From a virus (lineage: Duplodnaviria > Caudoviricetes), in IMG/VR virus record IMGVR_UViG_3300032213_002237, positions 1 through 64,000 of that record: DNA of 64,000 bases. One strand, 5' to 3'. Below are positions 12,568 through 63,818 of the stretch, piece by piece; positions within the stretch are counted from its first letter, which is position 1, and each line of letters starts with the position of its first letter. Below the pieces are notes generated by a model that was not told where the DNA came from, did not search any database, and was given only the letters and a program-made list of their open reading frames with translations. Position numbers and translations under genes: made by a program.

Positions 12568-14469
12568 TTATCTTAATTCATTCAAATCGAATGTACGAAC
12601 ACCATCAACGATGATACGACCATAGAAACGGTTATTAACCATCTTCTTAGCGTAACGTGTCATAATACCCTTGATAGGAGTAAAGTTGAATGGGTTATAC
12701 ATTGTTGGAGTTAATTGTAATGGTACGTATGGAGCGTAGATGTAACCAGTATCCAATAAAGAAGTACCTTTATGACCAATCAACACAGTGTTAGCTGGGA
12801 AGTATGGGTCACGGTATACTTGGTAACGACCACTTAATGTACCAACTCTCTCAATACCCATGTTGAATTGGTCTTGTTCAGGAGCCGCGTTTGATACGTG
12901 GAAGTATTCCAAGTCATCAAAGATAGCACTGATTTCAGAAGATACAACAATCCAGTTAGCTCCACCTCTTAAAGTAGACTTATGGATTTGAGCTGAAATT
13001 TGGTTGATTGCAGTAATCAACGTTTGATTCCAGTCCTTTTGAGTATAAGGAGTTGCTTGGTTGTTCAGACGCTTCCATCCGTTGTAATCCCAACGTAATG
13101 TCCAAGCCGCACCTTTACGTAAATCACGTAAAATTTCACGGTCAATTTCAGCTGCCACTTGCTCAGATAATAAAGCTGTTAATTCAGCCTCAGCATCGAT
13201 GTTGTGGAATGCTGCAACGTCTTGTGCCATTTCAGGAGACCATTGTGCTCTTAATTTTCTTTCTGTAACAGAAACAGTTACTGACTCAAGGTCGAAAGAA
13301 ACTTCACCAATTCTGTCTTCAAATTCTAACTCTTCGTAACGTCTCCAAGCTGCTAAAATGTTAGTGTAAGCGGCACCTGTACCATTGGTAGCTGCCGACC
13401 ATTGACTGTTTGTTAATGAAGAACCTGAATATCCATCAGGAGTTGATTGTCCACATGCAATACATGCAGGAACTTGAGCATCAATCTCTAAATAAATAAA
13501 TCCAGTTTGGCTACATACGTTATCATAATAACCACCGTTACCACCTGTGCTTGAATTACCAAACGCAGCTTGTTGTGAAGTATACTGAGGTCCGTACATT
13601 GCTTGACCATACTTCTGAGTTACAACACGATATAAAAGTGGTGTAAATCTGTTAGTATTCAAGTTAGATGCAACTGTTGAATTGTCAGTATAAAGTACTA
13701 AGTTAGATAAGAAAGATTCTGTATCTTGTTCTTGTCCGTCAGGACCAATTAACTTACCGATACCTGCAGTTGAGAATCCTGATAACGCAACAATAATTTT
13801 ACGATATTCAGTTGTACCTGTAGCATTTTGTCCATTAAGAGTATAACCTGATGGAATTAATGCTCCATTTGACCAAGCAACTGTTGGAGTAGCTGATGTT
13901 AAAGTAACAAATCTACCTTTAGAGTAATCAAATAAACCAGCTGGGTTAAGACCTGGCTCAGTTCCTTCATAGAACAAATCATAAAGATTCTTAGCGTAAG
14001 TTGAGTTGTAAGAACCGTTACCTGAACCGTAACCAGCGTCAGGATTTCCAGGATAGTTTCCAGGAGAACCAACTGGACCGTAATGGTCACCAGATGATAC
14101 ACCAAGACTGTCAGTAACTGAACCTCCAGAATAACCTTGGATTTGTGGTACGAAGTAGAACAATTTACCGATTGGTAAGTTCATAGCTTGTACAGAAACG
14201 ATTTCGTTAGACAATAATTTAGAGAACACACGTCTGATGATAGGGAATACCACAGTCTCGAATGAACCTGAATCTGCCGTAGAAGATGCTTCGTTAATCA
14301 AATGTGACGCTTGGTTTTCATACAATTGTGCAACATTTTCTTTTAGGTGGCCTTTAAGACCTTCAAGGAACCCTAATTTGTCCCATTTGTTTACTGTGTC
14401 TTCTTTGATAACTTTCAAGTGCTTAAGACCGATGTTACCAACTAATCCACTTTCTAATAATGCTCCCAT
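12568..14469 (-). CDS. major capsid protein (T4 gp23-like)
   Basis: VSVQAMNLPIGKLFY, RKLRAQWSPEMAQDVAAFHNIDAEAEL, YAPYVPL and GIMTRY motifs. Confidence 0.97.
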   Translation of the reverse strand: MGALLESGLVGNIGLKHLKVIKEDTVNKWDKLGFLEGLKGHLKENVAQLYENQASHLINEASSTADSGSFETVVFPIIRRVFSKLLSNEIVSVQAMNLPIGKLFYFVPQIQGYSGGSVTDSLGVSSGDHYGPVGSPGNYPGNPDAGYGSGNGSYNSTYAKNLYDLFYEGTEPGLNPAGLFDYSKGRFVTLTSATPTVAWSNGALIPSGYTLNGQNATGTTEYRKIIVALSGFSTAGIGKLIGPDGQEQDTESFLSNLVLYTDNSTVASNLNTNRFTPLLYRVVTQKYGQAMYGPQYTSQQAAFGNSSTGGNGGYYDNVCSQTGFIYLEIDAQVPACIACGQSTPDGYSGSSLTNSQWSAATNGTGAAYTNILAAWRRYEELEFEDRIGEVSFDLESVTVSVTERKLRAQWSPEMAQDVAAFHNIDAEAELTALLSEQVAAEIDREILRDLRKGAAWTLRWDYNGWKRLNNQATPYTQKDWNQTLITAINQISAQIHKSTLRGGANWIVVSSEISAIFDDLEYFHVSNAAPEQDQFNMGIERVGTLSGRYQVYRDPYFPANTVLIGHKGTSLLDTGYIYAPYVPLQLTPTMYNPFNFTPIKGIMTRYAKKMVNNRFYGRIIVDGVRTFDLNELR

Positions 14470-16217: not shown

Positions 16218-16937
16218 TTATTTTCCTAAATAATCGGAAAGTCTTCCCATTAAATCAAGCGATTTGTTAACTGTTCTTGATGCTTTCATTTCATTTTCTT
16301 CTTGTAGGTTCTCCTCAAACGCAAATCTTCCATCAGGTTCAGTAAATAAATAAGCTCCCGGTGTTGATGGTGAAGATACCAAGTCAAAACAAATTAATTC
16401 AAAATCATCTTGAACTTCATTTTGGTCACCTACCTTCTTTAAGGAACCTACCCCTCTTGATGATATACCTAACGTTACACCCAATCTTAATAGATTTGCT
16501 GCTTGGTCACCCTTTGTAGATACGATACCTCTTTCATGGAACCCTGGTGAAGTTAGAAGTAATAGTTTACCTAATAGAACATTACCATCCCACCACATCT
16601 CTGTAATCATGTGTGATACTCTATCTAAATCTATCAACGAAGACTCAGGGTGGTTAAGTTCTGATAAGGCAGTTTTTTTACCAATATAATTTTTTATATA
16701 GTTTTCAGATTCTCTTTTTAGAATTCTTTCAGGATATATTCTACCGTTTCTATTCGGTGTATTATATTTTTGTAGAACGGCATAGAACTCAAATGGTTTT
16801 GAATAATCTTTAAAATCCCTACTTTCTTGTAGAAATGTTTGATTATGTTTTTCTGTTGGGGAAACATAACCTGCATCCATTTCAATTAAAATACCTTTTC
16901 CCGTCTCTTTTGGACCTAATATTTTGTAATTTTGCAT
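16218..16937 (-). CDS. prohead protease (T4 gp21-like)
   Basis: NRNGRIY, ELNHP, GISSRGVGS and FDLVSSPSTPGAY motifs. Confidence 0.95.
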   Translation of the reverse strand: MQNYKILGPKETGKGILIEMDAGYVSPTEKHNQTFLQESRDFKDYSKPFEFYAVLQKYNTPNRNGRIYPERILKRESENYIKNYIGKKTALSELNHPESSLIDLDRVSHMITEMWWDGNVLLGKLLLLTSPGFHERGIVSTKGDQAANLLRLGVTLGISSRGVGSLKKVGDQNEVQDDFELICFDLVSSPSTPGAYLFTEPDGRFAFEENLQEENEMKASRTVNKSLDLMGRLSDYLGK

Positions 16938-33476: not shown

Positions 33477-33871
33477 GGGGATGTTTTTGGATTTGACAGG
33501 TATGAATCTGTCATAAAACGCACGTCGGGGCTAAACTAACCCTGTAAAACTGGTTTAAAACACAAACGGCAACACAATTGCAAAACTTTCTACACTCGGT
33601 TTAATCCGTACTGAAGAAGTAACTGTAGCCTAATCTAAGATTAGTATACAACGGGGTCGGTGAGCATATAACCTTGCAACAGAAGCTTGTACTGTGGTGT
33701 GGTTTCTATCCGAAAAGGAACAAAGTGGAGGATTAGTTCTCAGTAAACCGAACCACTATAAAATAAGGGAATTGTGAAGTTTCGGATTGTTTAGAAAAAC
33801 AATGACCTAAACGTGTAGTGTTTTATGGTCGACATATTTGGACCGGGGTTCGAGCCCCCGCATCTCCACCA
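33477..33871 (+). ncRNA. ssrA: tmRNA; predicted tag (A)GNTIAKLSTLGLIRTEEVTVA at 33568-33633
   Basis: 5' GGGGATG...GGATTTGAC; 3' T-arm GGGGTTCGAGCCCC and CATCTCCACCA; G3:U Ala identity pair; internal ORF. Confidence 0.93.
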
Positions 33872-33874
33872 ATT

Positions 33875-33902
33875 AAAAAGGGACTGAAAAGTCCCTTTTT
33901 TT
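33875..33902. terminator. bidirectional intrinsic terminator
   Basis: aaaaagggact-gaaa-agtcccttttt. Confidence 0.88.
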
Positions 33903-35508
33903 ATTTAATCATTTTTGATTTAATATTTTCAATATCTTCTAAAATATTTTTTTTCTTTTCTTCCGATTCAAATTGAGGTAACAAATCACCAATTTTATCC
34001 AATATGTCATCAACACTATATCCAAAAATTTCAAATCCGTCATTAGTATCTTTAACGTCTTTTTTATTTTCAACTTTTGAAACTAATTCTTTTTGACTTT
34101 CTTTATCGCCGGCTTTAGCTCCAGTAAGACTTCCTAACCCAACAGAATCTAAAAATGAATCTAATTTACTTGGTTTCTTTTCATTTTTTACAACTTCAAA
34201 AGTTGACGGTTCCCCACTTGGGTCAGAAAAATCAGGTGTTAATAAATCATCAATGTGTTTACCATATGGTAAACCTACGTGAACATGAGTTGATTTACTT
34301 TCACCCCATTCTGAAACTTTACCTATAGGTGTTCCGATATCAACAATATCACCCTTTTTAACTGTAACATCTTTTAAGTGAGTGTAAAAAATATTAGGAT
34401 ACCCATCAGTTCCCTCAATTGAAACTTGTGTTCCATATATTTTACCTGAACTTTTTCCCGTATTGTAAACCTTTGTAACAGTTCCTTTAGTTATTGAATT
34501 CCACTGAGTTCCAGCTGGTGCAAACAAATCCCACGCATTGTCAGATTGCCAATTACCTAACGGTCTAGAACCGTGGTATTTTGGACCATTTTCAATATCT
34601 CCTGAAAAATTATCTAAAACTTTTGAATTTTTTTCAAAAATGTATTTCATTTTTTTTAATTCATTAATAACTTCTTCATTTAATTTTTTCTTATCTTTAT
34701 TTCCATAAGATTCAAATTGTGGTAATATATCACCAATTTTATCTATTATATCATCAACTTTATATCCAAAAATTTCAAATCCATCATCAGTATCTTTAAC
34801 ATCTGTTTTATCTTGAACTTTTGAAACTAATTCTTTTTGACTTTCTTTATCACCGGCCTTAGCACCTGTAAGACTTCCTAATCCAATAGAATCTAAGAAT
34901 TTTTCTAATTTAGAAGGTTCTTGTGTTGTTTGTGACGACTCAATTTTTTCAAAATCAATATCTTCTAAATTATCTAAGTTTTTTAAAGACGAACAAAATT
35001 GAGATGTTCCCCCACCTTCATCTGTTTTATTATCAGAATAAGATAAATGGTAATGAACTCCTGTTGAAAATCTACTTGGTCTTCTATATTCATCAATGAA
35101 TGTAAAACCAGGATATTTTTTTCTTAACGCACATAATAAAGTAGATATTTTATCAAGTTCATCATTATCACCTTTTTCAATCCCTTTGAATACAACATCA
35201 ATTGCGTTACCTTTGTTGTGTCGGCTATTTGGGTATTGTTTATGGAATAAATCTCTACCTGAACCAAACTTTATTTTTAAATCAGGTAATTTTTGTTTAA
35301 ACGCGCTCGCAACATCTTTTAAAGTATCACCAAATTCAGGAGTTAAATCACCAACTTCCGCCATTGTTCTTTTAGTTTCATATCCTAAACTCTCCAAGTG
35401 ATTTTTAACACTTGTTGCAACTGGACGAGCACTTGATTCTTCTTCAAATATATTTTCTAACTTACGTAGTTCTTTTAACGATTGTTCGTGTAATTGTTTT
35501 TTATTCAT
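33901..35508 (-). CDS. two-domain peptidoglycan peptidase (M15-like + M23-like)
   Basis: SRHNKGNAID...HYH (M15); WDLFA..YTHL..V.KGD.V..G..IG...HVH (M23); duplicated ~65-aa segment. Confidence 0.75.
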   Translation of the reverse strand: MNKKQLHEQSLKELRKLENIFEEESSARPVATSVKNHLESLGYETKRTMAEVGDLTPEFGDTLKDVASAFKQKLPDLKIKFGSGRDLFHKQYPNSRHNKGNAIDVVFKGIEKGDNDELDKISTLLCALRKKYPGFTFIDEYRRPSRFSTGVHYHLSYSDNKTDEGGGTSQFCSSLKNLDNLEDIDFEKIESSQTTQEPSKLEKFLDSIGLGSLTGAKAGDKESQKELVSKVQDKTDVKDTDDGFEIFGYKVDDIIDKIGDILPQFESYGNKDKKKLNEEVINELKKMKYIFEKNSKVLDNFSGDIENGPKYHGSRPLGNWQSDNAWDLFAPAGTQWNSITKGTVTKVYNTGKSSGKIYGTQVSIEGTDGYPNIFYTHLKDVTVKKGDIVDIGTPIGKVSEWGESKSTHVHVGLPYGKHIDDLLTPDFSDPSGEPSTFEVVKNEKKPSKLDSFLDSVGLGSLTGAKAGDKESQKELVSKVENKKDVKDTNDGFEIFGYSVDDILDKIGDLLPQFESEEKKKNILEDIENIKSKMIK

Positions 35509-37004: not shown

Positions 37005-37081
37005 TGGTACCCCCGAAGGGATTCGAACCCCTGACCCACAGATTAGAAATCTGTTGCTCTATCCTACTGAGCTACGAAGGC
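37005..37081 (-). tRNA. tRNA-Arg(UCU)
   Basis: cloverleaf GCCTTCG...ACAGA-TTTCTAA-TCTGT...GGTTCGAATCC...CCA encoded. Confidence 0.95.
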
Positions 37082-39902: not shown

Positions 39903-41306
39903 TTAATCTTCTTTAAATGTTTTAGTTGTTGTGTCATAAGTATAATCTTTTCCGTTTGCTTTCCAATAACCACTCACGTCAGTATCATTTGTCGCGTCGT
40001 CAATACTTAAACTATTAGCTGTTAGGAATTTTTTGAAATCTTCAAGTGTTTGAGTATATTCTTTTTTACCACCTTCTGCAGGTTTGGTACCACCAATTTC
40101 TTCAACTGTCTTATTTGCAAGTTTTGGGTCAATACACGTAATTTTAACATTCTCACCTAAATTATTTTTCTTTTCAAGGTAAAATTCACCTTCTTTTTCA
40201 ATTACAGTTTCTAATTGACCATCATAAACTACTTTAGGATAGTACTTATCTACGTATTCATCTGAACCTAAAGCCTTCACATGGCTATCAGTTATCTTTT
40301 TATCACAAGAACTAATTAACCTTTTCAAAATATCCTGAGCTTCTTCAATATCTACCTGATATAACTCAAATCCAACAAATGTTCCACCTATTAACCCAAG
40401 AGAGACTATAGCTAGAGCAATTTTTACAGGTTTTGTAAGTGGGGGCATCTTAGGTAAGTATTCTTTAAATGCATCATATTGAGCCTTGAATTCCGCTCTT
40501 CTAATACCCTTTAACTTATTTGCGGCTTCCTGTATTTGAGTTTGAGAATCTGCTAATTTTTTCTGTAATTGTTCAAGTGTGACATTTGGATTGTCTGAAA
40601 TAAATTGTTTTGCTCTCGACTCTAAAACATCTGGTTTTACCTTAATTGTTTTAGAAATTGTTTGAATTTCTTTTTTTATTCCTTCACTCAAATTTCCAGT
40701 TTCATCCAACATACCTTTTAATGCATTTGTTAGATTCTTAACATTTGATTCAATTTGGGATTTTGCCCTATAATAATTATTATAAAGTCTATAACCTAGT
40801 TCATCTTGGATTCCCGTACTTTCACCGGATTTAAGTATTGTATCAAGACTTTCACCGTATGTATTATCAGCCGATTTTAAATCGTTTGCCTTTACTGATG
40901 AAGAAAACAAATCATCTGAAGATAACTCATCCGCCATTTTTTTCAAGCTTGGGTTTGTATTTACTACTGCCGCCGCCATTTTTCCCCTTATCTCTCTATT
41001 ACTAGATTTAACAAGTTTTTCAGCAATATCGTTAACCAAATCATCTGATAATTTACCAGCTCTAATATCTGTAATTATATCATCAAAAGTTTTACCTCCA
41101 GATTGAGCAATTTCATCAAAACTATTTCTAAGTGATTCCGCAACATCGTCAACCCCATCTTTAACCAAATCTTCAAAATCATCGACACTTTTACCAAAAA
41201 GAGTTAAAAATTCATCAATAACACCACCACCAACGGATTCTTTTAAAAGAGGTAATCCTAAAATTTCTCTAAAACGATTAATTTCGTATAAAATTTCTTT
41301 TTCCAT
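39903..41306 (-). CDS. hypothetical protein with leader and one TM segment
   Basis: ILYEINRFREILGLPLLKE leader; IALAIVSLGLIGG. Confidence 0.75.
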   Translation of the reverse strand: MEKEILYEINRFREILGLPLLKESVGGGVIDEFLTLFGKSVDDFEDLVKDGVDDVAESLRNSFDEIAQSGGKTFDDIITDIRAGKLSDDLVNDIAEKLVKSSNREIRGKMAAAVVNTNPSLKKMADELSSDDLFSSSVKANDLKSADNTYGESLDTILKSGESTGIQDELGYRLYNNYYRAKSQIESNVKNLTNALKGMLDETGNLSEGIKKEIQTISKTIKVKPDVLESRAKQFISDNPNVTLEQLQKKLADSQTQIQEAANKLKGIRRAEFKAQYDAFKEYLPKMPPLTKPVKIALAIVSLGLIGGTFVGFELYQVDIEEAQDILKRLISSCDKKITDSHVKALGSDEYVDKYYPKVVYDGQLETVIEKEGEFYLEKKNNLGENVKITCIDPKLANKTVEEIGGTKPAEGGKKEYTQTLEDFKKFLTANSLSIDDATNDTDVSGYWKANGKDYTYDTTTKTFKED

Positions 41307-46131: not shown

Positions 46132-46752
46132 ATGAAATATCTAATTAAAGAATCTCAAAAGAAAATTATCCTTGAAGCAATAAATGATAGGATTAAAGAA
46201 GTTCAAGAAGATGGTGTTGAACTAACAAAAAAAATTATTGAAGACACCAAATCACACGCTTCAATAAACTTAAAAATGATGCTCACATGGGGAGCGGCAA
46301 TCGGAGGGTTTATGGGGCCAATCATGCAATGGTTAAATGGAAAAGTGCCTGAGTTAACAGAAAAAGATTTATCATTAATTGCCGCAGGTATTGCTTCGGT
46401 AATATTTTTCGAAGAAAGAAGTTTTACCAAATCAATAATTAAAAAGATTAAAGAAGACGGACTTGAAGGGCCTTTTAAGTTGGGTGCTATCAAAGCTAAT
46501 CAACTTAAAACTGTTTTAGCTGGTTTTTTAAAGAGTTTAAATTTATCAGCCTTTACCGTAACAAATATGTTAAGTTACGCATTCTTGGTTCCTATTATAC
46601 CAATGATATATGACGCTGTCTCTGAAGGTATATGGGATATAAAAGATACTGAAATGTTGGTTAAATCATTATCGGCATTTGGATTGATAACAATTTCAGG
46701 TAATTTCTTAAAACGACTTATGGATTTAATCGTTGATAGAATTACTAAATAA
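46132..46752 (+). CDS. membrane protein with leader
   Basis: MKYLIKESQKKIILE leader; several hydrophobic helices. Confidence 0.75.
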   Translation: MKYLIKESQKKIILEAINDRIKEVQEDGVELTKKIIEDTKSHASINLKMMLTWGAAIGGFMGPIMQWLNGKVPELTEKDLSLIAAGIASVIFFEERSFTKSIIKKIKEDGLEGPFKLGAIKANQLKTVLAGFLKSLNLSAFTVTNMLSYAFLVPIIPMIYDAVSEGIWDIKDTEMLVKSLSAFGLITISGNFLKRLMDLIVDRITK

Positions 46753-47011
46753 AATCAATCTTTAATTCCAAATCAGACGTTCCTCTGAATATTCTGTGAT
46801 AAGTCCCTTCAGGAATTAATAATACTTGTCCTTCAGTTAACTCTATAGGTAGTTGATTATCCATTTGAAATTTCCATCCATCACCTTGTACCACTTCAAT
46901 CAATCTATCTTCTCTATCACGATGCCATTGTAGTTCACCACTATCAACATTGGATTTAAAAACTCTAATCTTTGAAGTTTCTGTTAGTTTTCTATCTTTA
47001 TACGGTTTCAT
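46745..47011 (-). CDS. cupin-domain protein
   Basis: WHRD..DR...IPEGTYHR cupin motifs. Confidence 0.7.
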   Translation of the reverse strand: MKPYKDRKLTETSKIRVFKSNVDSGELQWHRDREDRLIEVVQGDGWKFQMDNQLPIELTEGQVLLIPEGTYHRIFRGTSDLELKIDFI

Positions 47012-47012
47012 A

Positions 47013-47612
47013 TTACCAAAATCCTGGGTAAGTTTTACCACCCCACAAATAACCAAAACGGTTTAAACGACATGCCCAATAACCAGCAGTTAATCTATCT
47101 TTCTTTTTAGAACACTGATGTCTTGCAGCAAATGATTTACGAGCTTTAGGGTTAGATACCTTAGCAGTTAATCCACCATGAACATCACCAAATGAAATCT
47201 TCTTAACTCTACCTGTTGATGGGTTTTTAACATAAACAACATATTTCTTACCACCACCACTATTTCTTCTTGGTTTACCAAGTTCAACTTTCTTACCATT
47301 ATGTTCCGCCTCAGAAATAAATTCTTCTTCCATAGGAGTATCCAAGTAAATAACTCTACCACTTGATAATCTAACCTGTGTTCCAAAATCAGATTCAATA
47401 AGTTCAACATCATCTTCATTTAACTCAACCATTCCCTCGTAATACAACTCACGAGCTTCGTTAATAACATTAAAGAACTCTTCTGAACCAAATCTGAAGA
47501 TATTATCATTCAATGGTACTTCATTTGTTATATGATAATTAAGGTGTTCTGAAATAAGTGGTTTTTCCACCGATTCTGTAAGAACTTTTTTGATAAGTTT
47601 TTTGATATTCAT
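47013..47612 (-). CDS. hypothetical protein with leader and basic C-terminal domain (DUF6321-like)
   Basis: LIKKVLTE leader; KKISFGD...RKSFAARHQC...AGYWAC. Confidence 0.75.
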   Translation of the reverse strand: MNIKKLIKKVLTESVEKPLISEHLNYHITNEVPLNDNIFRFGSEEFFNVINEARELYYEGMVELNEDDVELIESDFGTQVRLSSGRVIYLDTPMEEEFISEAEHNGKKVELGKPRRNSGGGKKYVVYVKNPSTGRVKKISFGDVHGGLTAKVSNPKARKSFAARHQCSKKKDRLTAGYWACRLNRFGYLWGGKTYPGFW

Positions 47613-47812
47613 TTTTTACTTCGTAATAAGAAATACAACCCAAATAACAATGCTGAAATACAGTAAAAAATTCCTGTGGTAATCCAATAAGAACTTGTGT
47701 AGTCTAAAATTGCTTTGAACATTATGTCGAATCCTAGTGGATTGAAAAACATTGCGAGCATAAGGCAGTAAGTGGCAACATTTTCCTTTAGAATTCGTTT
47801 CATTTTCGTCAT
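47609..47812 (-). CDS. small two-TM membrane protein
   Basis: FFNPLGFD; hydrophobic helices. Confidence 0.65.
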   Translation of the reverse strand: MTKMKRILKENVATYCLMLAMFFNPLGFDIMFKAILDYTSSYWITTGIFYCISALLFGLYFLLRSKK

Positions 47813-47860
47813 TATCCATTAACGTGGGTTTAAAGTTTATGAACAAAGTTCATTTTATTT

Positions 47861-47989
47861 ATAAATATATTTGTGTGGAGGAATATTTTGTATATATTTG
47901 TAGAAATAATTAAATAATCAAGTCCTATGAAAAACTTATTTCTTTCTCTTGTTTTAGTAATGGTTGGATTAGTTGCCAACTCACAAGTA
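47861..47989 (+). repeat. promoter plus signal-peptide cassette, copy 1
   Basis: near-identical to 49240-49368. Confidence 0.85.
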
Positions 47990-48379
47990 TTTGTTGTAAA
48001 AACTGATACTATCCAAAAATTTCAACACCCAAAAGAAGTTAATTTTATTCCATCATTGGAAAATGGTTTAATTACATATACCACTCTTGGTCAGGGGGAA
48101 GTTGTTTACACTATTGATGTCGACAATAAATCTTTAACTATGAAAAATGGTGAGGGTGTGGTGTTTAATTTTGTAATCACTGAGGTATTCAAAAATCCAT
48201 CAAACGATATTTTAGTTTCTTTTGAATGTGTCGATACTAAAGGTTTTAAAGGTGTTGTAGTCGTTTACAAAAATGATAATAAATCAGTTAATATGTTAGT
48301 TGAGTATGACATTAATAATGAAACCACTGAAGGTTACATGTGTTTTGATGTTAAATGTAAAAAGAAAAACCCTCGTTAG
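47927..48379 (+). CDS. secreted protein (Sec signal peptide)
   Basis: MKNLFLSLVLVMVGLVANS/QV. Confidence 0.8.
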   Translation: MKNLFLSLVLVMVGLVANSQVFVVKTDTIQKFQHPKEVNFIPSLENGLITYTTLGQGEVVYTIDVDNKSLTMKNGEGVVFNFVITEVFKNPSNDILVSFECVDTKGFKGVVVVYKNDNKSVNMLVEYDINNETTEGYMCFDVKCKKKNPR

Positions 48380-48391
48380 AGGGTTTTTTAA

Positions 48392-49222
48392 TTAGATAGT
48401 TTGAATCCTTATATAATCATTTGTAGAAAATGAACGTTCCATGTCTTGGTCACTACCATCAACAAATACAGGGCATTTTGCCGATACACCTGGAAAACCA
48501 TTTATACGATAAAAACTTGTAGGTCTTAAACCACTACAAAAAGCATCCATAGCTTGATTTGAATTCGGGTTATCAAAGAAATTCTTTGAGGCTTGACTGT
48601 AATTAGAGTCTAAAAAATTACCTCCTGAATAATCCCCCTTAACTTTAGGATGAATGTGCCTATTCACTCTATCGTCAGGACATCCTGGTGTTCCTCTTTC
48701 ATTAAGTATTTTATTAAATAAATTCCATGGTAATGGTTTAACAACGTAATTAGAAGAATCGTTACCTGCCTTAAATGTGTAGACCCAACCGGTAGGATTA
48801 TTTTTATCTTTTTTACCTGTCCATTTTGGTTCAGAACAATGTTCCCCTTGCACAACAGTAATACCTTTGTCTGATAATAATTTTTGATATGCCTCTTTTT
48901 TAACTACAATCATTTCTGGATAATTTCCACCCACTTCACTCATTATCTCATATTTACCTACACCATAAACTTTATCACCAGTTTGTTTGGCAATTTCTTC
49001 TATATTACGACTTTGTTTTTGAGGAACCTCAACGACTTTAACACCACCATTAAGTGTTTTTATACCTAAATTAGATAAATCAGGATTTTGAGCCGTAGTT
49101 TGTGTCGTAGTTTGAGTTGTTCCAGTAGGTTGAGTAGTTGGTTGAACAGTATCTTCTTCATATAGAACTTTTTTGATTATTTTAACTAAATCATTTTCAG
49201 TTAGTCTAACTATTTTTGCCAT
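48392..49222 (-). CDS. hypothetical protein with shared leader
   Basis: MAKIVRLTENDLVKIIKKVLYE. Confidence 0.8.
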   Translation of the reverse strand: MAKIVRLTENDLVKIIKKVLYEEDTVQPTTQPTGTTQTTTQTTAQNPDLSNLGIKTLNGGVKVVEVPQKQSRNIEEIAKQTGDKVYGVGKYEIMSEVGGNYPEMIVVKKEAYQKLLSDKGITVVQGEHCSEPKWTGKKDKNNPTGWVYTFKAGNDSSNYVVKPLPWNLFNKILNERGTPGCPDDRVNRHIHPKVKGDYSGGNFLDSNYSQASKNFFDNPNSNQAMDAFCSGLRPTSFYRINGFPGVSAKCPVFVDGSDQDMERSFSTNDYIRIQTI

Positions 49223-52492: not shown

Positions 52493-52846
52493 ATGGCACA
52501 TCCAATAATCCATGCAAAATCATCGGTAAAAAAATTCGGAGGAAAATGGGAAGATTATATCCATTTACACGAATGGTTAGATGAAACAAAAGGTTGGTAC
52601 GGACATTCATTACACAGAATATGGAGACATCACTCTGAAGGTATATTTGAAATGGAACAACGTTTTGGTGCCGAATTTAAAAACAGTGATGGAAAAACTG
52701 TATACACCCGTTATGTTGGTGAACAACATGTAATGGAAGATTGTAATGGATATATCCCATCGGCAAAAGAATGGGTGTTAGCATTAGAAAATAAACAAAG
52801 ACCTTTATGGATGATTAAAACCATGAAGTTAGAAATTGATGATTGA
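52493..52846 (+). CDS. DUF6915-like His-rich protein
   Basis: MAHP..HA.SS.KKFGG...H.W.D...HR..RHH..G...EQHV.ED. Confidence 0.7.
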   Translation: MAHPIIHAKSSVKKFGGKWEDYIHLHEWLDETKGWYGHSLHRIWRHHSEGIFEMEQRFGAEFKNSDGKTVYTRYVGEQHVMEDCNGYIPSAKEWVLALENKQRPLWMIKTMKLEIDD

Positions 52847-52857
52847 TATTTATTATT

Positions 52858-53556
52858 ATGAAAGAATTATTAAATAACCCTGAAACTATAAAAAATTTTA
52901 AACTTTTACATTATATCCTATTAAGTAATGGTCTTACTCGTGTCAGTAATGACTTTTATGTTGATTACGACGGGAATGTTGATTATCACTTCTCACCTTG
53001 GACTAATAAAGGTGGAGCTTATGATATTATACCTAATAAATTATTTGATTTTTTAGATAATTTTTTTGACACTATTAAAGATGAAGTTTTAGATTCATTA
53101 GAAGGTGATGGTGATTCTAGAGCAACGGTGTCATGTGAGTATTCAACAACAGACAAAACTTTAATAATTGAAGAAAATATTCAAACTATGGGTTATGAAT
53201 CATATTACCAAGAGTTTGAAATTGACGAAAAGGAATTACTTGAAGATATGGTTCAGTGGAAAGAAGATGGTAAACTTAAAATTAGTGTTAATTTTAGCGG
53301 TGATGGTGATTCAGGTTATATTGATGACGTTGGTCTAATCAATGATACTGATGACAAACATTATGAATTTACAGCGGTTTGGGAAAATAAGTTATACAAC
53401 ATTTTGGAACAAAATCATGGTGGATGGGAAATAAATGAAGGCTCTGAGGGAACATTTATAATTAACAATGAAAACCAAACTATAGAACTAGATTTTCGTA
53501 TGAATGTTGAAGAATCTTCAACAGGTTACGAATTTAAACACCAATTTGAGTTTTAA
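52858..53556 (+). CDS. DUF6878-like acidic protein
   Basis: FSGDGDSG and GWEINEGSEG motifs; ATG 52858. Confidence 0.6.
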   Translation: MKELLNNPETIKNFKLLHYILLSNGLTRVSNDFYVDYDGNVDYHFSPWTNKGGAYDIIPNKLFDFLDNFFDTIKDEVLDSLEGDGDSRATVSCEYSTTDKTLIIEENIQTMGYESYYQEFEIDEKELLEDMVQWKEDGKLKISVNFSGDGDSGYIDDVGLINDTDDKHYEFTAVWENKLYNILEQNHGGWEINEGSEGTFIINNENQTIELDFRMNVEESSTGYEFKHQFEF

Positions 53557-53870
53557 TAAACCTGAATAGTTCTTTGTGGTCTGTCATCACCAAAGTCAGG
53601 ACAGAAATAAACATTATTACCATCGTGGTAAACTGTTCCACCAACTCCATTAGGAATTTTGTGTTTTTCATGGAATTTTTCACCCAAATCTATTTGGTGA
53701 TTACCATCTTTGATAATAAAACATAAGTTTTCAAAATCACACTTATATTGTTGGTCCTTGTTTTTATGTTTCATAAACTCGTCAAAAGACATTACGTATC
53801 TTGCATCTTCGTTAAGGTATCTTTTAACGATAAATTCTAATTGGTTTTCTGTGATAATAAACTTTTTCAT
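53553..53870 (-). CDS. hypothetical protein with shared leader
   Basis: MKKFIITENQLEFIVKRYLNE. Confidence 0.75.
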   Translation of the reverse strand: MKKFIITENQLEFIVKRYLNEDARYVMSFDEFMKHKNKDQQYKCDFENLCFIIKDGNHQIDLGEKFHEKHKIPNGVGGTVYHDGNNVYFCPDFGDDRPQRTIQVY

Positions 53871-53888: not shown

Positions 53889-55679
53889 TTAAGAATAAAT
53901 TCCTTGACTATAAATTTTCCATTCTTTTTTTCGTCTGTCTTCGTATGGAAAATCAATAAAATGTTGTTCAACATTTCGTAAATTATTTGGATTATTTTTT
54001 AACGCTGCTGATAAATTTGGAGCTTCTTTTGTACAACCATCAAATCCCATTTGATAACATAATGAACACATCGCGTCTAATTGTTGTTGACTTAAGTTTG
54101 GGTATAAATTAAGTATTTTTTTTGCGTTTTTGTTTAATGTGTTTTTCATTAATTCTTTTGCCTTTGTTTCGGTAATATCAGGGTCATTAGGTTTAACAGG
54201 TATTCCACCAGGATAATACGTTGTACCATAACCTATTGTTGCCTTTGCTCCGGGAGTTGGGGATTTTCCTCTTAAACAACAATCAGGTTCTTTTCTCACA
54301 CATTTACCACCTTTAGCGTCGTCATAAACACACTTAACAAAAAACTCAATATTCGCTACAAAATTTACAAGTTTATCTGAAACTGTTCCGACCCCAACTG
54401 TATTTGAATTTGATGACTTTTCTTTTGCAATTTTTGCAATTTTTTTAGCACCAGCTTTAACTGCATCAACAGCACCTCCTGAATTTGGTGTCATTTGGTC
54501 TTTTGATGGTGCCATAGAAGACCATGTATTCATTAAATTTGATTCTTCTTTTTTATCATCAGAACCAAAATATTTGTTATAGAAATCCATAGTCGATGTT
54601 TGCTCATTAATATTTGGTCTTAAAACCGTCATAGCCTCAGGGAAGTCTTTGTTTAAAACATCCTCATCCTTATTTGTGTAAGGAATGTTTTGTAAAACGT
54701 ATCTAATTGAGTTTAGACCTGAAATCTTTTTATCGTTAGAATCCAAAACAACCCACGGATGATTCACTGTAGATGTCTTATCAAAAAGTTTTTGTTTATA
54801 TTCTGTAAACTTTTCCCACACATCTTGCATCTTCTCATCATTCTCAGAATACTTCCAATATTTCAATGGTGACTTCTGTCTGAAATCAAATCTCTTAGCT
54901 TGAGTTTCTTTATCTATTGAGAACCAAAGTTTAAATAAGTAATCCCCATCAACAACCAATGATTCTTCAAAATCCTGAACATTATCCATAAAGTCTTCGT
55001 ACTCTTCTGACGAACCATAACCCATTACAGGTTCAACTAATCCTCTATTGTACCAACTTCTATCAAAGAAGTTTATCTTACCTTTTTCAATTTGATTACT
55101 GTATCTATCCCACCAGTTCTTTCTTTCATCAGGTGTTGGGATACCAAGAGCAATAACTTTATAATATCTTGGATTTAAATTTTCAGTGAATTTCTTAATT
55201 GTAGAACCTTTACCTGCCGAGTCTCTTCCTTCAAAAACAATTATAACAGTTTTACCTGTTTGTTTTAACCATTCCTGTAACTTTAAAAGTTCAACCTGTA
55301 GAAAAAATATTTCTTTTTTATAAATGTCTTTATCTAAAATTGATGGTTCTTCTTCAGGATTAACAACTTCTTTTTTATTTTTTCTTTTTTCTAATGATTT
55401 AGTTAGTTGTTTGAAAAATTCAAAAACATTAATATCTTTGTTACCTTTTAACTTTAAAGTTTTTAAAACACCTCTTGTTATTAATCCAAAATCAACCAAA
55501 CCGTCTTTTGAGTAATCATCAATTTTATTAATAAATTTTTGAATTTGAGCACTATACACTTTATTATCTTTTAAAACTGAAACAAGATATTTTATTTCAG
55601 GGCTATATTTTGGCTTATCGGCCTCTTGTAAACCCATCATGTTTTTCATCTTACTAACTTCAGTCAATAAATTCCTCAT
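53889..55679 (-). CDS. ppk2: polyphosphate kinase 2 fused to C-terminal GH24 lysozyme-like domain
   Basis: FEGRDSAGKG, FDRSWYNR, SPLKYWK; C-terminal IE...TIGYGT...QQQLDAMCSL.YQMG...RRKKE. Confidence 0.85.
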   Translation of the reverse strand: MRNLLTEVSKMKNMMGLQEADKPKYSPEIKYLVSVLKDNKVYSAQIQKFINKIDDYSKDGLVDFGLITRGVLKTLKLKGNKDINVFEFFKQLTKSLEKRKNKKEVVNPEEEPSILDKDIYKKEIFFLQVELLKLQEWLKQTGKTVIIVFEGRDSAGKGSTIKKFTENLNPRYYKVIALGIPTPDERKNWWDRYSNQIEKGKINFFDRSWYNRGLVEPVMGYGSSEEYEDFMDNVQDFEESLVVDGDYLFKLWFSIDKETQAKRFDFRQKSPLKYWKYSENDEKMQDVWEKFTEYKQKLFDKTSTVNHPWVVLDSNDKKISGLNSIRYVLQNIPYTNKDEDVLNKDFPEAMTVLRPNINEQTSTMDFYNKYFGSDDKKEESNLMNTWSSMAPSKDQMTPNSGGAVDAVKAGAKKIAKIAKEKSSNSNTVGVGTVSDKLVNFVANIEFFVKCVYDDAKGGKCVRKEPDCCLRGKSPTPGAKATIGYGTTYYPGGIPVKPNDPDITETKAKELMKNTLNKNAKKILNLYPNLSQQQLDAMCSLCYQMGFDGCTKEAPNLSAALKNNPNNLRNVEQHFIDFPYEDRRKKEWKIYSQGIYS

Positions 55680-55752
55680 ACTGATAAATACTTTTTAATA
55701 AATATTTTGTTAATCTTGATTATTTTTAATAAAACGCATATATTTAATTTTA

Positions 55753-55876: not shown

Positions 55877-56701
55877 ATGAAAAACACAGAAACTTACAAC
55901 GAGTTAGTTCAAAAAATGAGAACATTCTTCCAAAACAAAGGTTTTAAAGAAGTTCCAACCCAATCAAGATTGTCAATCTTGGCAGCGTGTGAAAATCCAC
56001 ACTCAATAACAACATTTAATTATCAAGGAGAAGTTTGGCCACTACCACAGACGGGTCAAATGTGGTTAGAATACGAACTTCTTAAGAATCCTGAATGGAA
56101 TGGTGTTTATTGTATTTCAACGTCTTATAGACAAGAAAAAGACCCAATTCCAGGTCGTCATGAAATGATTTTTCCAATGTTTGAGTTCGAATCAAAAGGT
56201 GGGATGAAAGAAATGTTAAAACTTGAATCTGAACTTTTAGATTATTTAGGGTTTGATTCACCTGTAGAAGTTAACTACGATGATGTATGTGAAGAGTACG
56301 GTGGGGTTTCAATTTTAGAAAACGAACACGAAACAAGAATGTGGGAAGAAAAAGGACCAGTAGTATCATTACAGAATTTCCCATACAGAACAAATCCATT
56401 TTGGAACATGAGAGAAAGTGAAAACAAAATATTCAACAAAGTTGATGTAATTCTTTACGGACAAGAAACAATTGGTTCGGCTGAAAGAAGTTCTAACGTG
56501 GAAGAAATGAGAAATAATTTCTACACAATAGAAAATGGAAAATATTCTGAAAAACTATTTGAGCTATTCGGTAAAGAAAGAGTTGAGAAAGAATTAGAAG
56601 AATTTTTATCACACAATTTCTTCCCACGATTTGGTGGTGGTATCGGAATGACTCGTTTATCAAGAGCTTACGAATTACTACAACAAGAAGTTACAGTATA
56701 A
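55877..56701 (+). CDS. class IIb aaRS catalytic-domain paralog (AsnRS-like asparagine synthetase)
   Basis: motif 2 SYRQE...GRH...FEFE, ETIGSAER, motif 3 GGGIGMTRL; no anticodon domain. Confidence 0.75.
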   Translation: MKNTETYNELVQKMRTFFQNKGFKEVPTQSRLSILAACENPHSITTFNYQGEVWPLPQTGQMWLEYELLKNPEWNGVYCISTSYRQEKDPIPGRHEMIFPMFEFESKGGMKEMLKLESELLDYLGFDSPVEVNYDDVCEEYGGVSILENEHETRMWEEKGPVVSLQNFPYRTNPFWNMRESENKIFNKVDVILYGQETIGSAERSSNVEEMRNNFYTIENGKYSEKLFELFGKERVEKELEEFLSHNFFPRFGGGIGMTRLSRAYELLQQEVTV

Positions 56702-56706
56702 ACTAC

Positions 56707-56733
56707 AAATCCCCTCATTTGAGGGGATTTTTT
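56707..56733. terminator. bidirectional intrinsic terminator
   Basis: aaatcccctca-tt-tgaggggattt. Confidence 0.8.
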
Positions 56734-56897
56734 TATTCTTTAATCTCTTTCATCAACTTACCCCACAAGACTGTCTGTAATAGGATAAGACCAGTACTTA
56801 AAACAAATACAGGTAATGATGGTGAGGTTACCATTAATACAACTGATAATACAAGAGCGAACATTGCTGAAGTCAATTTTAGTTTTAAGTTTTTCAT
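56733..56897 (-). CDS. 54-aa two-TM membrane protein (not in ORF track)
   Basis: MKNLKLKLTSAMFALVLSVVLMV...; TATATTTGtagaa upstream. Confidence 0.7.
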   Translation of the reverse strand: MKNLKLKLTSAMFALVLSVVLMVTSPSLPVFVLSTGLILLQTVLWGKLMKEIKE

Positions 56898-57505: not shown

Positions 57506-57931
57506 ATGACAAAAATTAAAAACGGTGATAATGTATCTGTTCATTATACAGGTAAATTAGAAGATGGTTCAGTATTCGACACATCTTTAGCTGAGGGTAG
57601 AGAACCTCTTACAGTAACATTAGGTCAAGGACAATTAATTCCTGGTTTTGAAAACGGATTAATTGATATGACCGCTGGTGAAATGAAAACAATTGAAATT
57701 GAACCAGAAAATGCTTACGGAGAAATTCAACCTCAAATGATGAGTGAAATACCACTATCTCAAGTCCCTGAAGGTGTTAAAGCCGGGGATATGTTACAAG
57801 GACAAAACCAATTTGGTCCTGTAAACGTTGTAGTTACAGAAGTTAAAGAAAGCACTGTTGTGTTGGACATGAACCACCCACTAGCAGGTAAGAAACTTAT
57901 CTTTGATTTAGAAGTTGTATCTGTAAACTAA
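57506..57931 (+). CDS. FKBP-type peptidyl-prolyl isomerase (SlyD-like, no His tail)
   Basis: VHYTGKLEDGSVFDTS, LIPGFE, AYG and DMNHPLAGKKL motifs. Confidence 0.93.
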   Translation: MTKIKNGDNVSVHYTGKLEDGSVFDTSLAEGREPLTVTLGQGQLIPGFENGLIDMTAGEMKTIEIEPENAYGEIQPQMMSEIPLSQVPEGVKAGDMLQGQNQFGPVNVVVTEVKESTVVLDMNHPLAGKKLIFDLEVVSVN

Positions 57932-58904: not shown

Positions 58905-59438
58905 ATGAATATCTTCTTTTTAGATTGGGACACAAAAAAATGTGCAGAATACCATTGTGATAAACACGTGGTTAAGATGATTCTTGAAACTGCTCAGCTA
59001 TTATGTGGTGCCCACCATGTGACCCACCAAGCACCCACCAAGTACCGCCCAAGTACCGCCCAAGTACCGTACAAGTTATCACACAAAAATCACCCCTGTT
59101 CAATATGGGTTAGAGAGTCATCATCAAACTATCTTTATCTTTGTGACTTAGGACTTGAGTTATGTAAAGAATACACTTATAGATACGGAAAACGTCATAA
59201 ATCACAGGATGTAATTGAATGGTGTTTAACAAATAAATTAAACATTCATGACAAAGGTTTTACTGAACCGCCAAAAGCAATGCCTGATGAATACAAAGTA
59301 ACAGACGTTATAGAATCATACAGAAACTATTATAACGGAGCTAAGAAAGATTTTGCTAAATGGAAAAATAGAGATATCCCTGAATGGTTTAACCATTCAT
59401 CAACTGTTGCATCTGAGCAACAAGTTGACCTTGTTTAG
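58905..59438 (+). CDS. pyrimidine-dimer DNA glycosylase/endonuclease V-like protein
   Basis: MNIFFLD...HCDKHVVKMILETAQLL, HKNHPCSIW and YRNYY motifs. Confidence 0.75.
   Translation: MNIFFLDWDTKKCAEYHCDKHVVKMILETAQLLCGAHHVTHQAPTKYRPSTAQVPYKLSHKNHPCSIWVRESSSNYLYLCDLGLELCKEYTYRYGKRHKSQDVIEWCLTNKLNIHDKGFTEPPKAMPDEYKVTDVIESYRNYYNGAKKDFAKWKNRDIPEWFNHSSTVASEQQVDLV
59023..59077 (+). repeat. degenerate 11-bp tandem repeat in CDS
   Basis: cccaccaagca cccaccaagta ccgcccaagta ccgcccaagta ccgtacaagtt. Confidence 0.8.
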
Positions 59439-62453: not shown

Positions 62454-62843
62454 TCATTTAAGTTGTTTCATCGATAATGCCAAATAATATGAAGTACCTG
62501 GTGTTTTGAAACTACCTATACCATGAGGGAATGTAAAAGCGTCATTTTTGTAAGTATATATTGCACGGGGTTTTAATTGTGGGTATTCATAGTTGTCAGT
62601 TGAAATTAAATCATAACTGTTACCACCAACTGACTTTACCGACATGGCAACTCTAACAGGTTTACCGTCTTTGTTTTTAATTACGTTTTTATCTTTACCA
62701 AAAACTGTGAAAAAATAGTCTTTACCATCCTCAAAATTTATATCTTCTGGTTTCTTTTTTGAAGTATCTGTTGTTTCTTCATTAATAACTCTTTTAACTA
62801 TTCTAACCAAATCTGACTCGGTTAATCTCACTATTTTTTTCAT
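62454..62843 (-). CDS. hypothetical protein with shared leader
   Basis: [22 protein letters not shown]. Confidence 0.8.
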   Translation of the reverse strand: MKKIVRLTESDLVRIVKRVINEETTDTSKKKPEDINFEDGKDYFFTVFGKDKNVIKNKDGKPVRVAMSVKSVGGNSYDLISTDNYEYPQLKPRAIYTYKNDAFTFPHGIGSFKTPGTSYYLALSMKQLK

Positions 62844-62877
62844 AATATATAATGTTTAATATAAATATATGTGGGTT

Positions 62878-63189
62878 TTAAAACTCCATGTTAATTCTCT
62901 TAATTTCTATTCCAAACTTATCGGAATAATATTTTTCAATACCTTCACCAACCGAATTTCCAAATAAGATACGCATCTTTTCAAAAAAAGAATAATCAAT
63001 CCATAATGTCCCGTGATTATTTCTGTGAGCAATTCTTACAGGGTAACCATCACTATCAACGTCTTTCCTACTAAAAAAATGAATATACCCATCATCTTTG
63101 TCAATGTTCATTTCAACATCACCATAGGTAGCCTCCATGTACTTCTTAATAACCTCATTTAACTTACTCTCGGTAATAATATATTTCAT
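62878..63189 (-). CDS. hypothetical protein with shared leader
   Basis: MKYIITESKLNEVIKKYME. Confidence 0.78.
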   Translation of the reverse strand: MKYIITESKLNEVIKKYMEATYGDVEMNIDKDDGYIHFFSRKDVDSDGYPVRIAHRNNHGTLWIDYSFFEKMRILFGNSVGEGIEKYYSDKFGIEIKRINMEF

Positions 63190-63200
63190 ATTATATATTT

Positions 63201-63818
63201 TTATTCAACTGGTGGCTCCGGTGTACTTGTCACATCGTTTAAATATTTAACATAGGGACGCCCAATGGGAGTGAAAACATTAACAGTGTCTTTAGTGAAT
63301 GGACGACCTTCAGTAGCCGAATAAAATTTAAAATCTGAAAATGGTAAAAAAGGGTAATTTAATAACTTATCACCAAATTTATTCTTTAATTCATCCACAG
63401 TAAGATTTGTTGCAATAGCTGTCAAAACTTCATTATCATTATTTATATGTTTACCAAATGTTTTAAATGATGACATTTTATTAAATAATTTTTCTAAAAC
63501 ACCCTCAACATAAATAGTATACCTATCTTGAGCCATAACGTAATCAGTTGGTACTGGTTTTGGTGTTGATGAAACCGTAGTTTGAGTTTTTCCAGGTATT
63601 TTTAATTTTTGACCAACACGAATTAAATTTACATTTTTAATATTATTTAAAGTTGCAATTTCTTTCCAATTAACACCCAAGGTTTTACCAATCTTACTTA
63701 AAGTATCACCCTTCTTAACTACATACTCCTGATTTGTTACCGCATTAGAATCTTCTGTAATAACTTTTTTAACTATTCTAACCAAATCAGATTCAGTTAA
63801 TCTTATAATCTTTTTCAT
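63201..63818 (-). CDS. LysM-domain protein with shared leader
   Basis: [12 protein letters not shown]...LNNI...[11 protein letters not shown]; [22 protein letters not shown]. Confidence 0.88.

Follow-up and report, generated by a model that had tools for sequence, protein, structure and literature searches.

We describe a gene of an uncultured tailed phage (Duplodnaviria; Caudoviricetes) in which a polyphosphate kinase of the PPK2 family is fused to a GH24 lysozyme behind a short N-terminal leader. The gene lies on the minus strand at positions 53889-55679 of the 64,000-nucleotide stretch analysed here (the window; positions 1 to 64,000 of IMG/VR record IMGVR_UViG_3300032213_002237). Comparison with its relatives leads us to propose that the product is a capsid-targeted precursor which would be cut at LQE19|A and INE359|Q, and that the PPK2 and an entry lysin would both be ejected into the host; we give this reading about an even chance of being right. 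The evidence that carries it is a glutamate-ending motif between the two enzymes, found wherever something follows the PPK2, the presence of at least five different wall-hydrolase modules on near-identical PPK2 blocks, and free-standing lysins that have the same motif directly behind a leader. The gene is built as follows:

53889..55679, minus strand: whole open reading frame (ORF), 596 amino acids, 68.7-kDa precursor, stop codon 53889-53891 included
55623..55679, minus strand: leader, residues 1-19 (MRNLLTEVSKMKNMMGLQE), predicted amphipathic helix 2-14, then L17-Q-E19
55344..55622, minus strand: family-specific helical N-domain, residues 20-112, with model helices at 27-100 and conserved positions in the family alignment
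54618..55343, minus strand: PPK2 domain, residues 113-354, class-I-like, with Walker A (GRDSAGKG), DRSWYNR and lid residues that do not vary within the family
54600..54617, minus strand: junction P355-N-I-N-E359-Q360, candidate internal prohead-protease site
54390..54599, minus strand: variable low-complexity linker, residues 361-430
53892..54389, minus strand: GH24 lysozyme domain, residues 431-596 (E445, D454, T481)
54243..54317, minus strand: Cys-rich insert, residues 455-479, between the catalytic Asp and the TIGYG motif, conserved in one GH24 subfamily

The reading frame is uninterrupted, with no internal stops. A preliminary description, made from the letters alone, had placed in this one frame a leader, a PPK2, a PNINE/Q site at about 54600-54615, a low-complexity linker and a GH24-like domain with a Cys-rich insert, and the analysis bore out each of these elements. 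Pfam assigns residues 115-338 of the 596-residue protein to PPK2 (PF03976; E 1.3e-70, 238 bits against a cut-off of 22.3; profile positions 2-227 of 229) and residues 476-561 to Phage_lysozyme (PF00959; E 3.5e-11, 44 bits against a cut-off of 22.3), and PNINEQ occupies residues 355-360, at 54617..54600. An AlphaFold2 model built on an alignment of 73 homologues (mean predicted local distance difference test score, pLDDT, 68) has a leader helix at residues 2-14 running into L-Q-E, low confidence at 16-23, a helical N-domain at 27-100, the PPK2 fold at 117-353 and the lysozyme domain at the C-terminus. The linker stays below pLDDT 50 over residues 357-429. This low-confidence stretch begins exactly at I-N-E-Q, such that both candidate cleavage sites open low-confidence segments of the model (16-23 and 357-429). 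An (F/L)MxxWSSM..PKDQM element recurs in the linker, and an amphipathic helix is predicted at 404-421. For the N-domain (residues 20-112) there was no Pfam match and no usable ESM Atlas match.

We searched 5.8 billion proteins, and the 120 best relatives listed comprise 72 fused and 48 PPK2-only proteins, one without the end motif. The fused homologues come from four sources (ENA, JGI, Logan and NCBI assemblies); IMG/VR holds 41 loci, 19 with a full-length fused ORF, on contigs of up to 269 kb. The preliminary description had proposed confirming the junction with reads, and Logan contigs of runs X2 and X10, from independent studies, bridge the PPK2-lysozyme junction at 54600-54617. The fusion might in principle be an artefact of assembly or gene calling, or a decaying read-through of two genes, on the general ground that metagenome contigs can be chimeric; nothing specific of this kind was found. 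The single frame without stops, the 72 fused homologues and 19 full-length loci, the bridging contigs and the conservation of the catalytic residues of both domains all speak against this explanation, which we regard as having virtually no chance of being correct. Assembly artefact in particular is ruled out by the fused homologues and the independent bridging contigs.

The junction, the leader and free-standing lysins

All 72 fused forms have a triplet of the form [LIVM]-x-E no more than seven residues from the end of the PPK2; all 48 unfused ones, which stop 0-6 residues past ...VL[KR]P, lack it. The fused forms read NINEQ (49), EVNEQ (8), EINEQ (6), NVNEQ (4), IEE (3) or IGE (2) at this place. 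The motif survives at 47-65% overall identity and stands before every kind of C-terminal module; the linker immediately behind it is hypervariable. By this comparison the junction behaves like a processing site, and the precursor would be cleaved there.

What follows the junction varies widely. The C-terminus is GH24 in 48 of the 72 fused forms (four subtypes), Hydrolase_2 in 12 and Phage_lysozyme2 in 6; three have a module that matches PHROGs endolysin, tail injection transglycosylase or tape measure families, and the last three carry a 118-residue module without a Pfam or PHROGs name. Five module classes were found on PPK2 blocks 94-100% identical to that of the query, near-identical blocks carrying GH24 (four subtypes), Hydrolase_2, Phage_lysozyme2 or an injection-transglycosylase-like module, and in two sets of identical PPK2 blocks the C-termini are not the same. 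A survey of homologues for alternative C-terminal domains had been suggested in the preliminary description, and the alternatives found are wall hydrolases. They include PF18013 ('phage tail lysozyme'), phrog_7182 ('tail injection transglycosylase') and tape-measure PHROGs, module types that, judged from sequence, are typical of virion-associated lysins. A tree of 119 PPK2 blocks, built quickly by maximum likelihood, requires 37 changes of module label (minimum possible 9, shuffled mean 63.7) and 6 changes between the fused and unfused states, at least 4 of them forced by well-supported branches. These counts are approximate minima, since the sequences are related to one another and recombination may have distorted the tree. 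The module of one relative (P0055) was named by PHROGs and gave only unnamed viral clusters in the ESM Atlas. The C-terminal 118 residues of the 478-481-amino-acid PPK2 forms (P0077, P0080 and P0089) yielded no identity in Pfam or PHROGs; standing behind an N-I-E-E|Q site, this module may be a second cargo that is not a lysin.

The leader has its own pattern, a helix, a Gly and then L-Q-E, which recurs in fused and unfused members of the family. An [LIVM]-x-E ending at residues 12-32 is present in 78 of 85 distinct N-termini, compared with a mean of 45.6 and a maximum of 59 in 500 shuffles. Across 14 close loci the most variable leader codon is that of P2, and L17 and E19 are fixed. At 19 residues the leader falls within the 10-19-amino-acid range of T4 capsid targeting sequences. 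A leader profile search also picks up several small proteins in relatives, and a second protein of the contig starts with the same type of leader:

39903..41306, minus strand: 467-amino-acid protein (MEKEILYEINRFREILGLPLLKE...) with a weak tape-measure-like match

Leader and hydrolase also occur together without a PPK2. The syntenic contigs L039-L041 encode, between the same neighbours, a 200-amino-acid protein whose leader runs straight into KPNINEQ, followed by the linker and Hydrolase_2. In 21 of the 49 short proteins that a search with residues 355-596 returned, a leader comes first and [IV][NDS]EQ next, both within the first 32 residues; the shared linker and hydrolase come after. Eighteen of these 21 share the MRNLLTEV-type leader and three (P0147, P0155 and P0159) have other types; with two exceptions the module of all 21 is GH24, Pfam recording no domain for P0156 and P0166 continuing into an injection-type module. 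Leaders of other types are found on most of the remaining short proteins, and across the whole set [LIVM]-x-E-Q occurs at residues 9-34 in 31 of the 49, behind various leader types. The complete relative G3 encodes an unfused leader-PPK2 and, elsewhere, a 264-amino-acid leader-VNEQ-linker-GH19 protein, as well as a canonical leaderless PG_binding_1+GH19 endolysin. Since unfused PPK2s finish in ...VL[KR]P and free lysins start with leader-GL[KNT]PNINEQ, the simplest origin of the fusion is a join at the shared L-K-P. As far as the sequences tell, the most likely event is the joining of a leader-PPK2 gene to a leader-[KNT]PNINEQ-linker-hydrolase gene, by which the lysin's own post-leader site would have become the internal junction.

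Stereotyped N-termini were also noticed in dozens of small ORFs, at 62454-63818, beyond the window in the contig region 64283-84005, and at 46132-49222 and 53553-53870. They read MKYLITESQL..., MKK[IV]... or MNLQEHIKKVLREE...; [LIV]-x-E lies within or at the end of each, and the sequence TATTTAT precedes many of these ORFs. These leader-bearing small ORFs may, from their sequence, represent further capsid-targeted cargo, in effect an expanded internal-protein arsenal. Among larger examples, 63201-63818 (minus strand) encodes a leader-bearing protein with a LysM wall-binding module, and relative G1 has at 20895-21677 a leader protein with MORN repeats and PG_binding_1 in which the leader is followed by ...KPLINE, resembling KPNINE.

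The PPK2 and lysozyme domains

The residues G151-R-D-S-x-G-K-G158, D206-R-S-W-Y-N-R212, R263, R267, K273 and W275 are invariant among 73 aligned family members, and we take them to be the Walker A P-loop, the Walker B Asp and the lid Arg and Lys residues of PPK2. Of solved structures, class I PPK2s match best by sequence (E 8e-65 to 6e-59), followed by PPK2-II (adenosine monophosphate (AMP) phosphotransferase) structures (E 1e-44 to 5.6e-43) and by the remaining AMP phosphotransferases and class III structures (about E 4e-24 to 2.6e-15); Foldseek ranks the classes in the same order. By sequence and modelled fold, then, the domain, with its catalytic motifs intact, is like class I, the class that converts nucleoside diphosphates (NDPs) to nucleoside triphosphates (NTPs). 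The role in which it would make NTPs from host polyphosphate at the onset of infection fits this class-I-like sequence and fold.

The likeness to solved class I PPK2s (5LL0/5LLB/4YEG and 3CZQ/6DZG) amounts to 40-44% identity over about 240 residues, with E 8e-65 by sequence and 4e-20 by fold and with the Walker A and lid motifs conserved. In contrast to these proteins, the one described here is encoded by a phage and adds the 19-residue leader, the 93-residue N-domain and the C-terminal lysin. PPK2 genes in phage genomes are already known at the level of annotation: those of megaphage LR756502 and others, Moraxella phage Mcat6 and Acinetobacter phage MD-2021a are annotated as metabolic and encode PPK2s 35-56% identical to this one. 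They differ from the fusion in that their matches span residues 113-369 only; no match to the leader, N-domain or lysin was found in 50,697 phage records.

Endolysins of the GH24 family in the PDB match the C-terminal domain with scores down to 8e-9, and its PHROGs match is phrog_7 ('endolysin'). The GH24 triad consists of E445, D454 (Glu+9) and T481 in ATIGYG, presumably equivalent to the E11/D20/T26 triad of T4 lysozyme that we use as reference, and is conserved across the subtypes. The catalytic Asp is separated from the Thr by the Cys-rich insert of 21-25 residues. Cysteines are found at positions 450, 460, 467, 468, 538, 541 and 549, and residues 1-449 are Cys-free. Searches with PF00959, PF00182, PF01510 and PF01464 revealed no further hydrolase in the 84-kb contig to which the window belongs, a result that means little because the contig is only 29% complete.

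A 535-amino-acid multi-domain wall hydrolase with Peptidase_M23 is encoded at 33901-35508 (minus strand). Its homologue in G1 (553 amino acids) has the same N-terminus and Amidase_2 instead of Peptidase_M23, and this lysin gene is a second one in which the catalytic module can be exchanged.

Head genes, expression and the competing readings

The completeness of the 84-kb contig was estimated with CheckV, which rates relatives of 240-269 kb as 82-100% complete. Runs containing the sequence are freshwater or lake metagenomes, and RNA runs hold only small shares of it (0.05-0.07). The host is probably Gram-negative and possibly a member of the Bacteroidota. The phage has a T4-type head module with portal (1.6e-75), Peptidase_S77 (PF03420; 9.4e-27) and Gp23 capsid protein (4.4e-72); the order portal-core-protease-scaffold-capsid is as in T4, and the large terminase gene also belongs to the module. 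The following elements bear on the processing, expression and function of the fusion protein:

16218..16937, minus strand: prohead protease, Peptidase_S77, T4 gp21-like, proposed processing enzyme
14290..14298, minus strand: I58-N-E60 codons of the Gp23-type capsid protein (gene 12568-14469), opposite T4 gp23 L-T-E65|A
55698..55704, minus strand: TATTTAT box, promoter-like, starting 25 nt before the ATG
55684..55690, minus strand: second TATTTAT box, promoter-like, starting 11 nt before the ATG
56733..56897, minus strand: 54-amino-acid holin-like protein with two hydrophobic segments, upstream of the fusion gene

In an alignment of capsid proteins, LINE|ASST of this phage, G1 and G3 stands opposite the maturation site FLTE|AEIGG of T4 gp23. 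The capsid I-N-E equals that of the junction, which is consistent with a shared protease motif; the match is not decisive because the genome of this phage is AT-rich and I, N and E are common in it. The capsid gene (12568-14469, minus strand) encodes 633 amino acids; beyond about residue 110 of the alignment the protein carries large insertions that T4 gp23 lacks.

The contig has 82 copies of TATTTAT on its two strands, and 43 of them sit 10-39 nt upstream of sense-strand ORF starts. The box precedes the portal, protease, scaffold-candidate and TerL genes, the gene of the 467-amino-acid leader protein and many leader-bearing small ORFs. Sharing of the box suggests that the fusion gene is co-expressed with the head genes, and thereby its likely timing.

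From these comparisons we infer a scheme that covers the timing of synthesis, capsid targeting, location in the virion, cleavage, ejection and the in vivo activity of both enzymes. The precursor would probably be made late, together with the head genes. Its 19-residue amphipathic leader would dock it in the scaffolding core of the prohead, in the manner of a T4 capsid targeting sequence, and the gp21-type Peptidase_S77 protease would then cut after Glu at L17-Q-E19|A20 and I357-N-E359|Q360. These cuts would shed the leader and release a 340-residue PPK2 (40.3 kDa) and a 237-residue linker-GH24 lysozyme (26.2 kDa), both of which would stay with the DNA in the head and leave it at infection. The ejected lysozyme might open the peptidoglycan locally for entry, and the ejected PPK2, on reaching the cytoplasm, could convert NDPs to NTPs at the expense of host polyphosphate and so supply the first steps of infection. 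The idea of a head-packaged polyprotein split by the prohead protease had been put forward in the preliminary description. Its comparative side has been strengthened by the S77 protease, the INE|Q counts, the capsid I-N-E alignment, the free-standing leader-INEQ-hydrolase proteins and the swapped modules; the remainder of it stays a proposal.

Several observations weigh against this scheme. Its weakest step is the route of a head-internal lysin to the periplasm in a T4-like phage, and we know of no precedent for such a lysin in a phage of the T4 type. GH24 is a classic endolysin fold, as the phrog_7 match also indicates, and the holin-like gene with two transmembrane segments lies upstream on the same strand. 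The cleavage motif is short, and the fusion protein has 9 [LIV]-x-E triplets where shuffles predict 7.9. The homologues are related, and the conservation counts are accordingly not independent events. The 14 close loci have diverged too little for conservation of the protein to be told apart from conservation of the DNA: their leader and junction codons show few synonymous changes, and from those sequences a recombination joint is possible. The scaffold candidate is not enriched in [LIV]-x-E (17 against 15.2 expected), a comparison that says nothing about protease specificity because this protein is Glu-rich. The closest cultured capsid proteins, those of Flavobacterium phage immuto and a Microcystis phage, are only 42% identical. 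As for expression, 42 of 131 ORFs carry TATTTAT, the capsid gene is without an exact copy, and the box is tied to late expression only through its association with head genes. Finally, in the collection of phage records the PPK2 is the only part of the fusion that has matches.

The main competing reading is a late protein that never enters the virion. Its PPK2 would regenerate NTPs in the cytoplasm for replication or packaging of a genome of roughly 290 kb, the GH24 domain would act as a holin-dependent endolysin, and leader and INEQ would be module boundaries kept by recombination or would serve another purpose. The GH24 and phrog_7 matches favour this explanation, as does the holin-like gene, which in loci L010 and L039 is directly adjacent, with no tRNA-synthetase-like gene between. 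Endolysin modules also shuffle, close relatives conserve leader and junction in their DNA as well, and a promoter class common to head genes suits any late gene. It has to contend, however, with separate leaderless lysin candidates in fusion-bearing relatives: G2 encodes a leaderless 278-amino-acid PG_binding/GH19-type protein with a small transmembrane neighbour of its own, and G1 a leaderless 200-amino-acid Amidase_2. In G3 a canonical endolysin stands alongside the leader-VNEQ-GH19 protein, and the 54-amino-acid transmembrane gene has no homologue there. Moreover, the leader occurs on PPK2-only proteins and on the 467-amino-acid tape-measure-like protein, which play no part in lysis; [IV]NEQ persists at 47-65% identity behind different leader classes while the adjoining linker varies freely; and the module types are typical of virion-associated lysins. 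On balance we consider a non-virion protein unlikely.

A further alternative accepts the virion location and removal of the leader but not the internal cut. The product would then be a two-domain protein of about 66 kDa, either ejected or sited in the tail or baseplate, in which the lysin would remain attached to a PPK2 that acts as a bulky carrier or as an enzyme. All the evidence for targeting applies to it equally, and leader proteins of this clade often have wall-binding modules (LysM, PG_binding_1) that would suit a tail tip too. Against it, the junction motif appears only where something follows the PPK2 (72/72 versus 0/48), free-standing lysins have the same site directly behind their leaders, and the motif opens a disordered stretch of 70 residues; an invariant I/V-N-E-Q would be needless in a linker that stays uncut. 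We judge an uncut virion protein to be quite improbable.

Other genes of the contig were noted in passing. The fusion gene adjoins a 274-amino-acid class II aminoacyl-tRNA-synthetase-like gene (55877-56701, plus strand; tRNA-synt_2, E 6e-13), which is present in loci L001 and L011 and absent from L010, L012 and L039. A phage transfer-messenger RNA (Rfam RF00023, 133 bits; ARAGORN tag peptide AKLSTLGLIRTEEVTVA) is found at 33477-33871 (plus strand) and a tRNA-Arg(TCT) at 37005-37081 (minus strand). Plus-strand genes encode a 687-amino-acid ClpB/ClpC-like double AAA+ protein (29394-31457), a DUF6915 protein (52493-52846), an FKBP-type prolyl isomerase (57506-57931) and a pyrimidine-dimer glycosylase-like protein (58905-59438).

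Relation to known systems and significance

Phages carry peptidoglycan hydrolases in their particles, among them the tail lysozyme gp5 of T4, gp16 of T7 and lysin domains within tape measure proteins. The proposed entry lysin resembles T4 gp5 in its GH24 fold and would likewise be a particle-carried wall hydrolase. It would differ from T4 gp5 and T7 gp16 in its proposed site inside the head, behind a removable leader, and in the fusion of the hydrolase to a metabolic enzyme. PF00959 was detected only in the fusion gene of the genomes examined, where no gp5-type lysozyme domain was seen elsewhere.

The closest parallel for the proposed route is the set of T4 internal proteins (IPs). According to PMC9026906, the cuts made by T4 gp21 follow the Glu of L/I-x-E, the propeptides it takes off are 7 to 65 residues long, and N-terminal capsid targeting sequences of 10-19 residues bring the internal proteins into the core; an Asp at P1 prevents processing in T4 and leaves targeting unaffected. 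The same article presents capsid targeting as a proposed general route by which T4-like phages load diverse proteins, and describes the T4 head as passing enzymes as large as Alt and an engineered beta-galactosidase (PMC9026906). The present phage shares with IPI, IPII, IPIII and Alt the T4-type head, the S77 protease and a propeptide of 10-19 residues ending in L/I-x-E. The T4 proteins, enzymes or effectors, are packed in the head and ejected with the DNA, steps that for the fusion protein we propose from its sequence; Alt is cut at both ends (PMC9026906). What sets the fusion apart is its cargo, a PPK2 and a wall hydrolase, and the presence of two cargoes in one precursor with an internal site. 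Its leader also differs from the T4 targeting sequences, being a different and longer amphipathic helix.

Head-internal proteins of phiKZ, 201phi2-1 and SPN3US are cut after Glu by gp21-related proteases and ejected, as reported in PMC5694885 and PMC9026906. These, too, are large phages, with many head-internal proteins and short Glu motifs. They differ in their A/S/G-x-E motifs, in belonging to another head lineage, and in their known cargo, which consists of virion RNA polymerase and inner-body proteins and includes neither PPK2 nor lysins. No sequence-level relation to the ejection proteins of these three phages was found in our comparisons. The limited body of full-text literature searched contained no report of a PPK2 located in virions or targeted to capsids, or of fusions of this kind.

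The leaders may point to something larger than a single gene. We tentatively suggest, at somewhat less than an even chance, that this clade of freshwater jumbo phages has a plug-and-play 'injected proteome', in which leader helices ending in [LIV]-x-E load dozens of unrelated proteins into the capsid. If so, the cargo would include wall hydrolases, wall-binding proteins, membrane proteins, many small ORFs and a pre-made PPK2 that turns the polyphosphate store of the host into NTPs as infection begins. Every cargo would be trimmed at the same kind of site, and cargo genes could therefore be fused and their modules freely swapped; fusion and swapping at no cost in function would account for the five kinds of lysin on identical PPK2 blocks.

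If the proposal of a capsid-targeted precursor is correct, this would be the first case known to us of a polyphosphate-driven, NTP-regenerating enzyme carried inside a phage particle, and energy supply in starved, polyphosphate-rich hosts would be a bottleneck that phages address from the very start of infection. With its modules rapidly exchanged behind a constant cleavage site, the entry lysin would be a fast-evolving component related to host range. The T4 capsid-targeting principle would extend to a large group of uncultured phages, and head cargo would have a natural polyprotein form. A leader helix followed by [LIV]-x-E would then be a simple sequence rule for predicting the ejected proteome of such phages.

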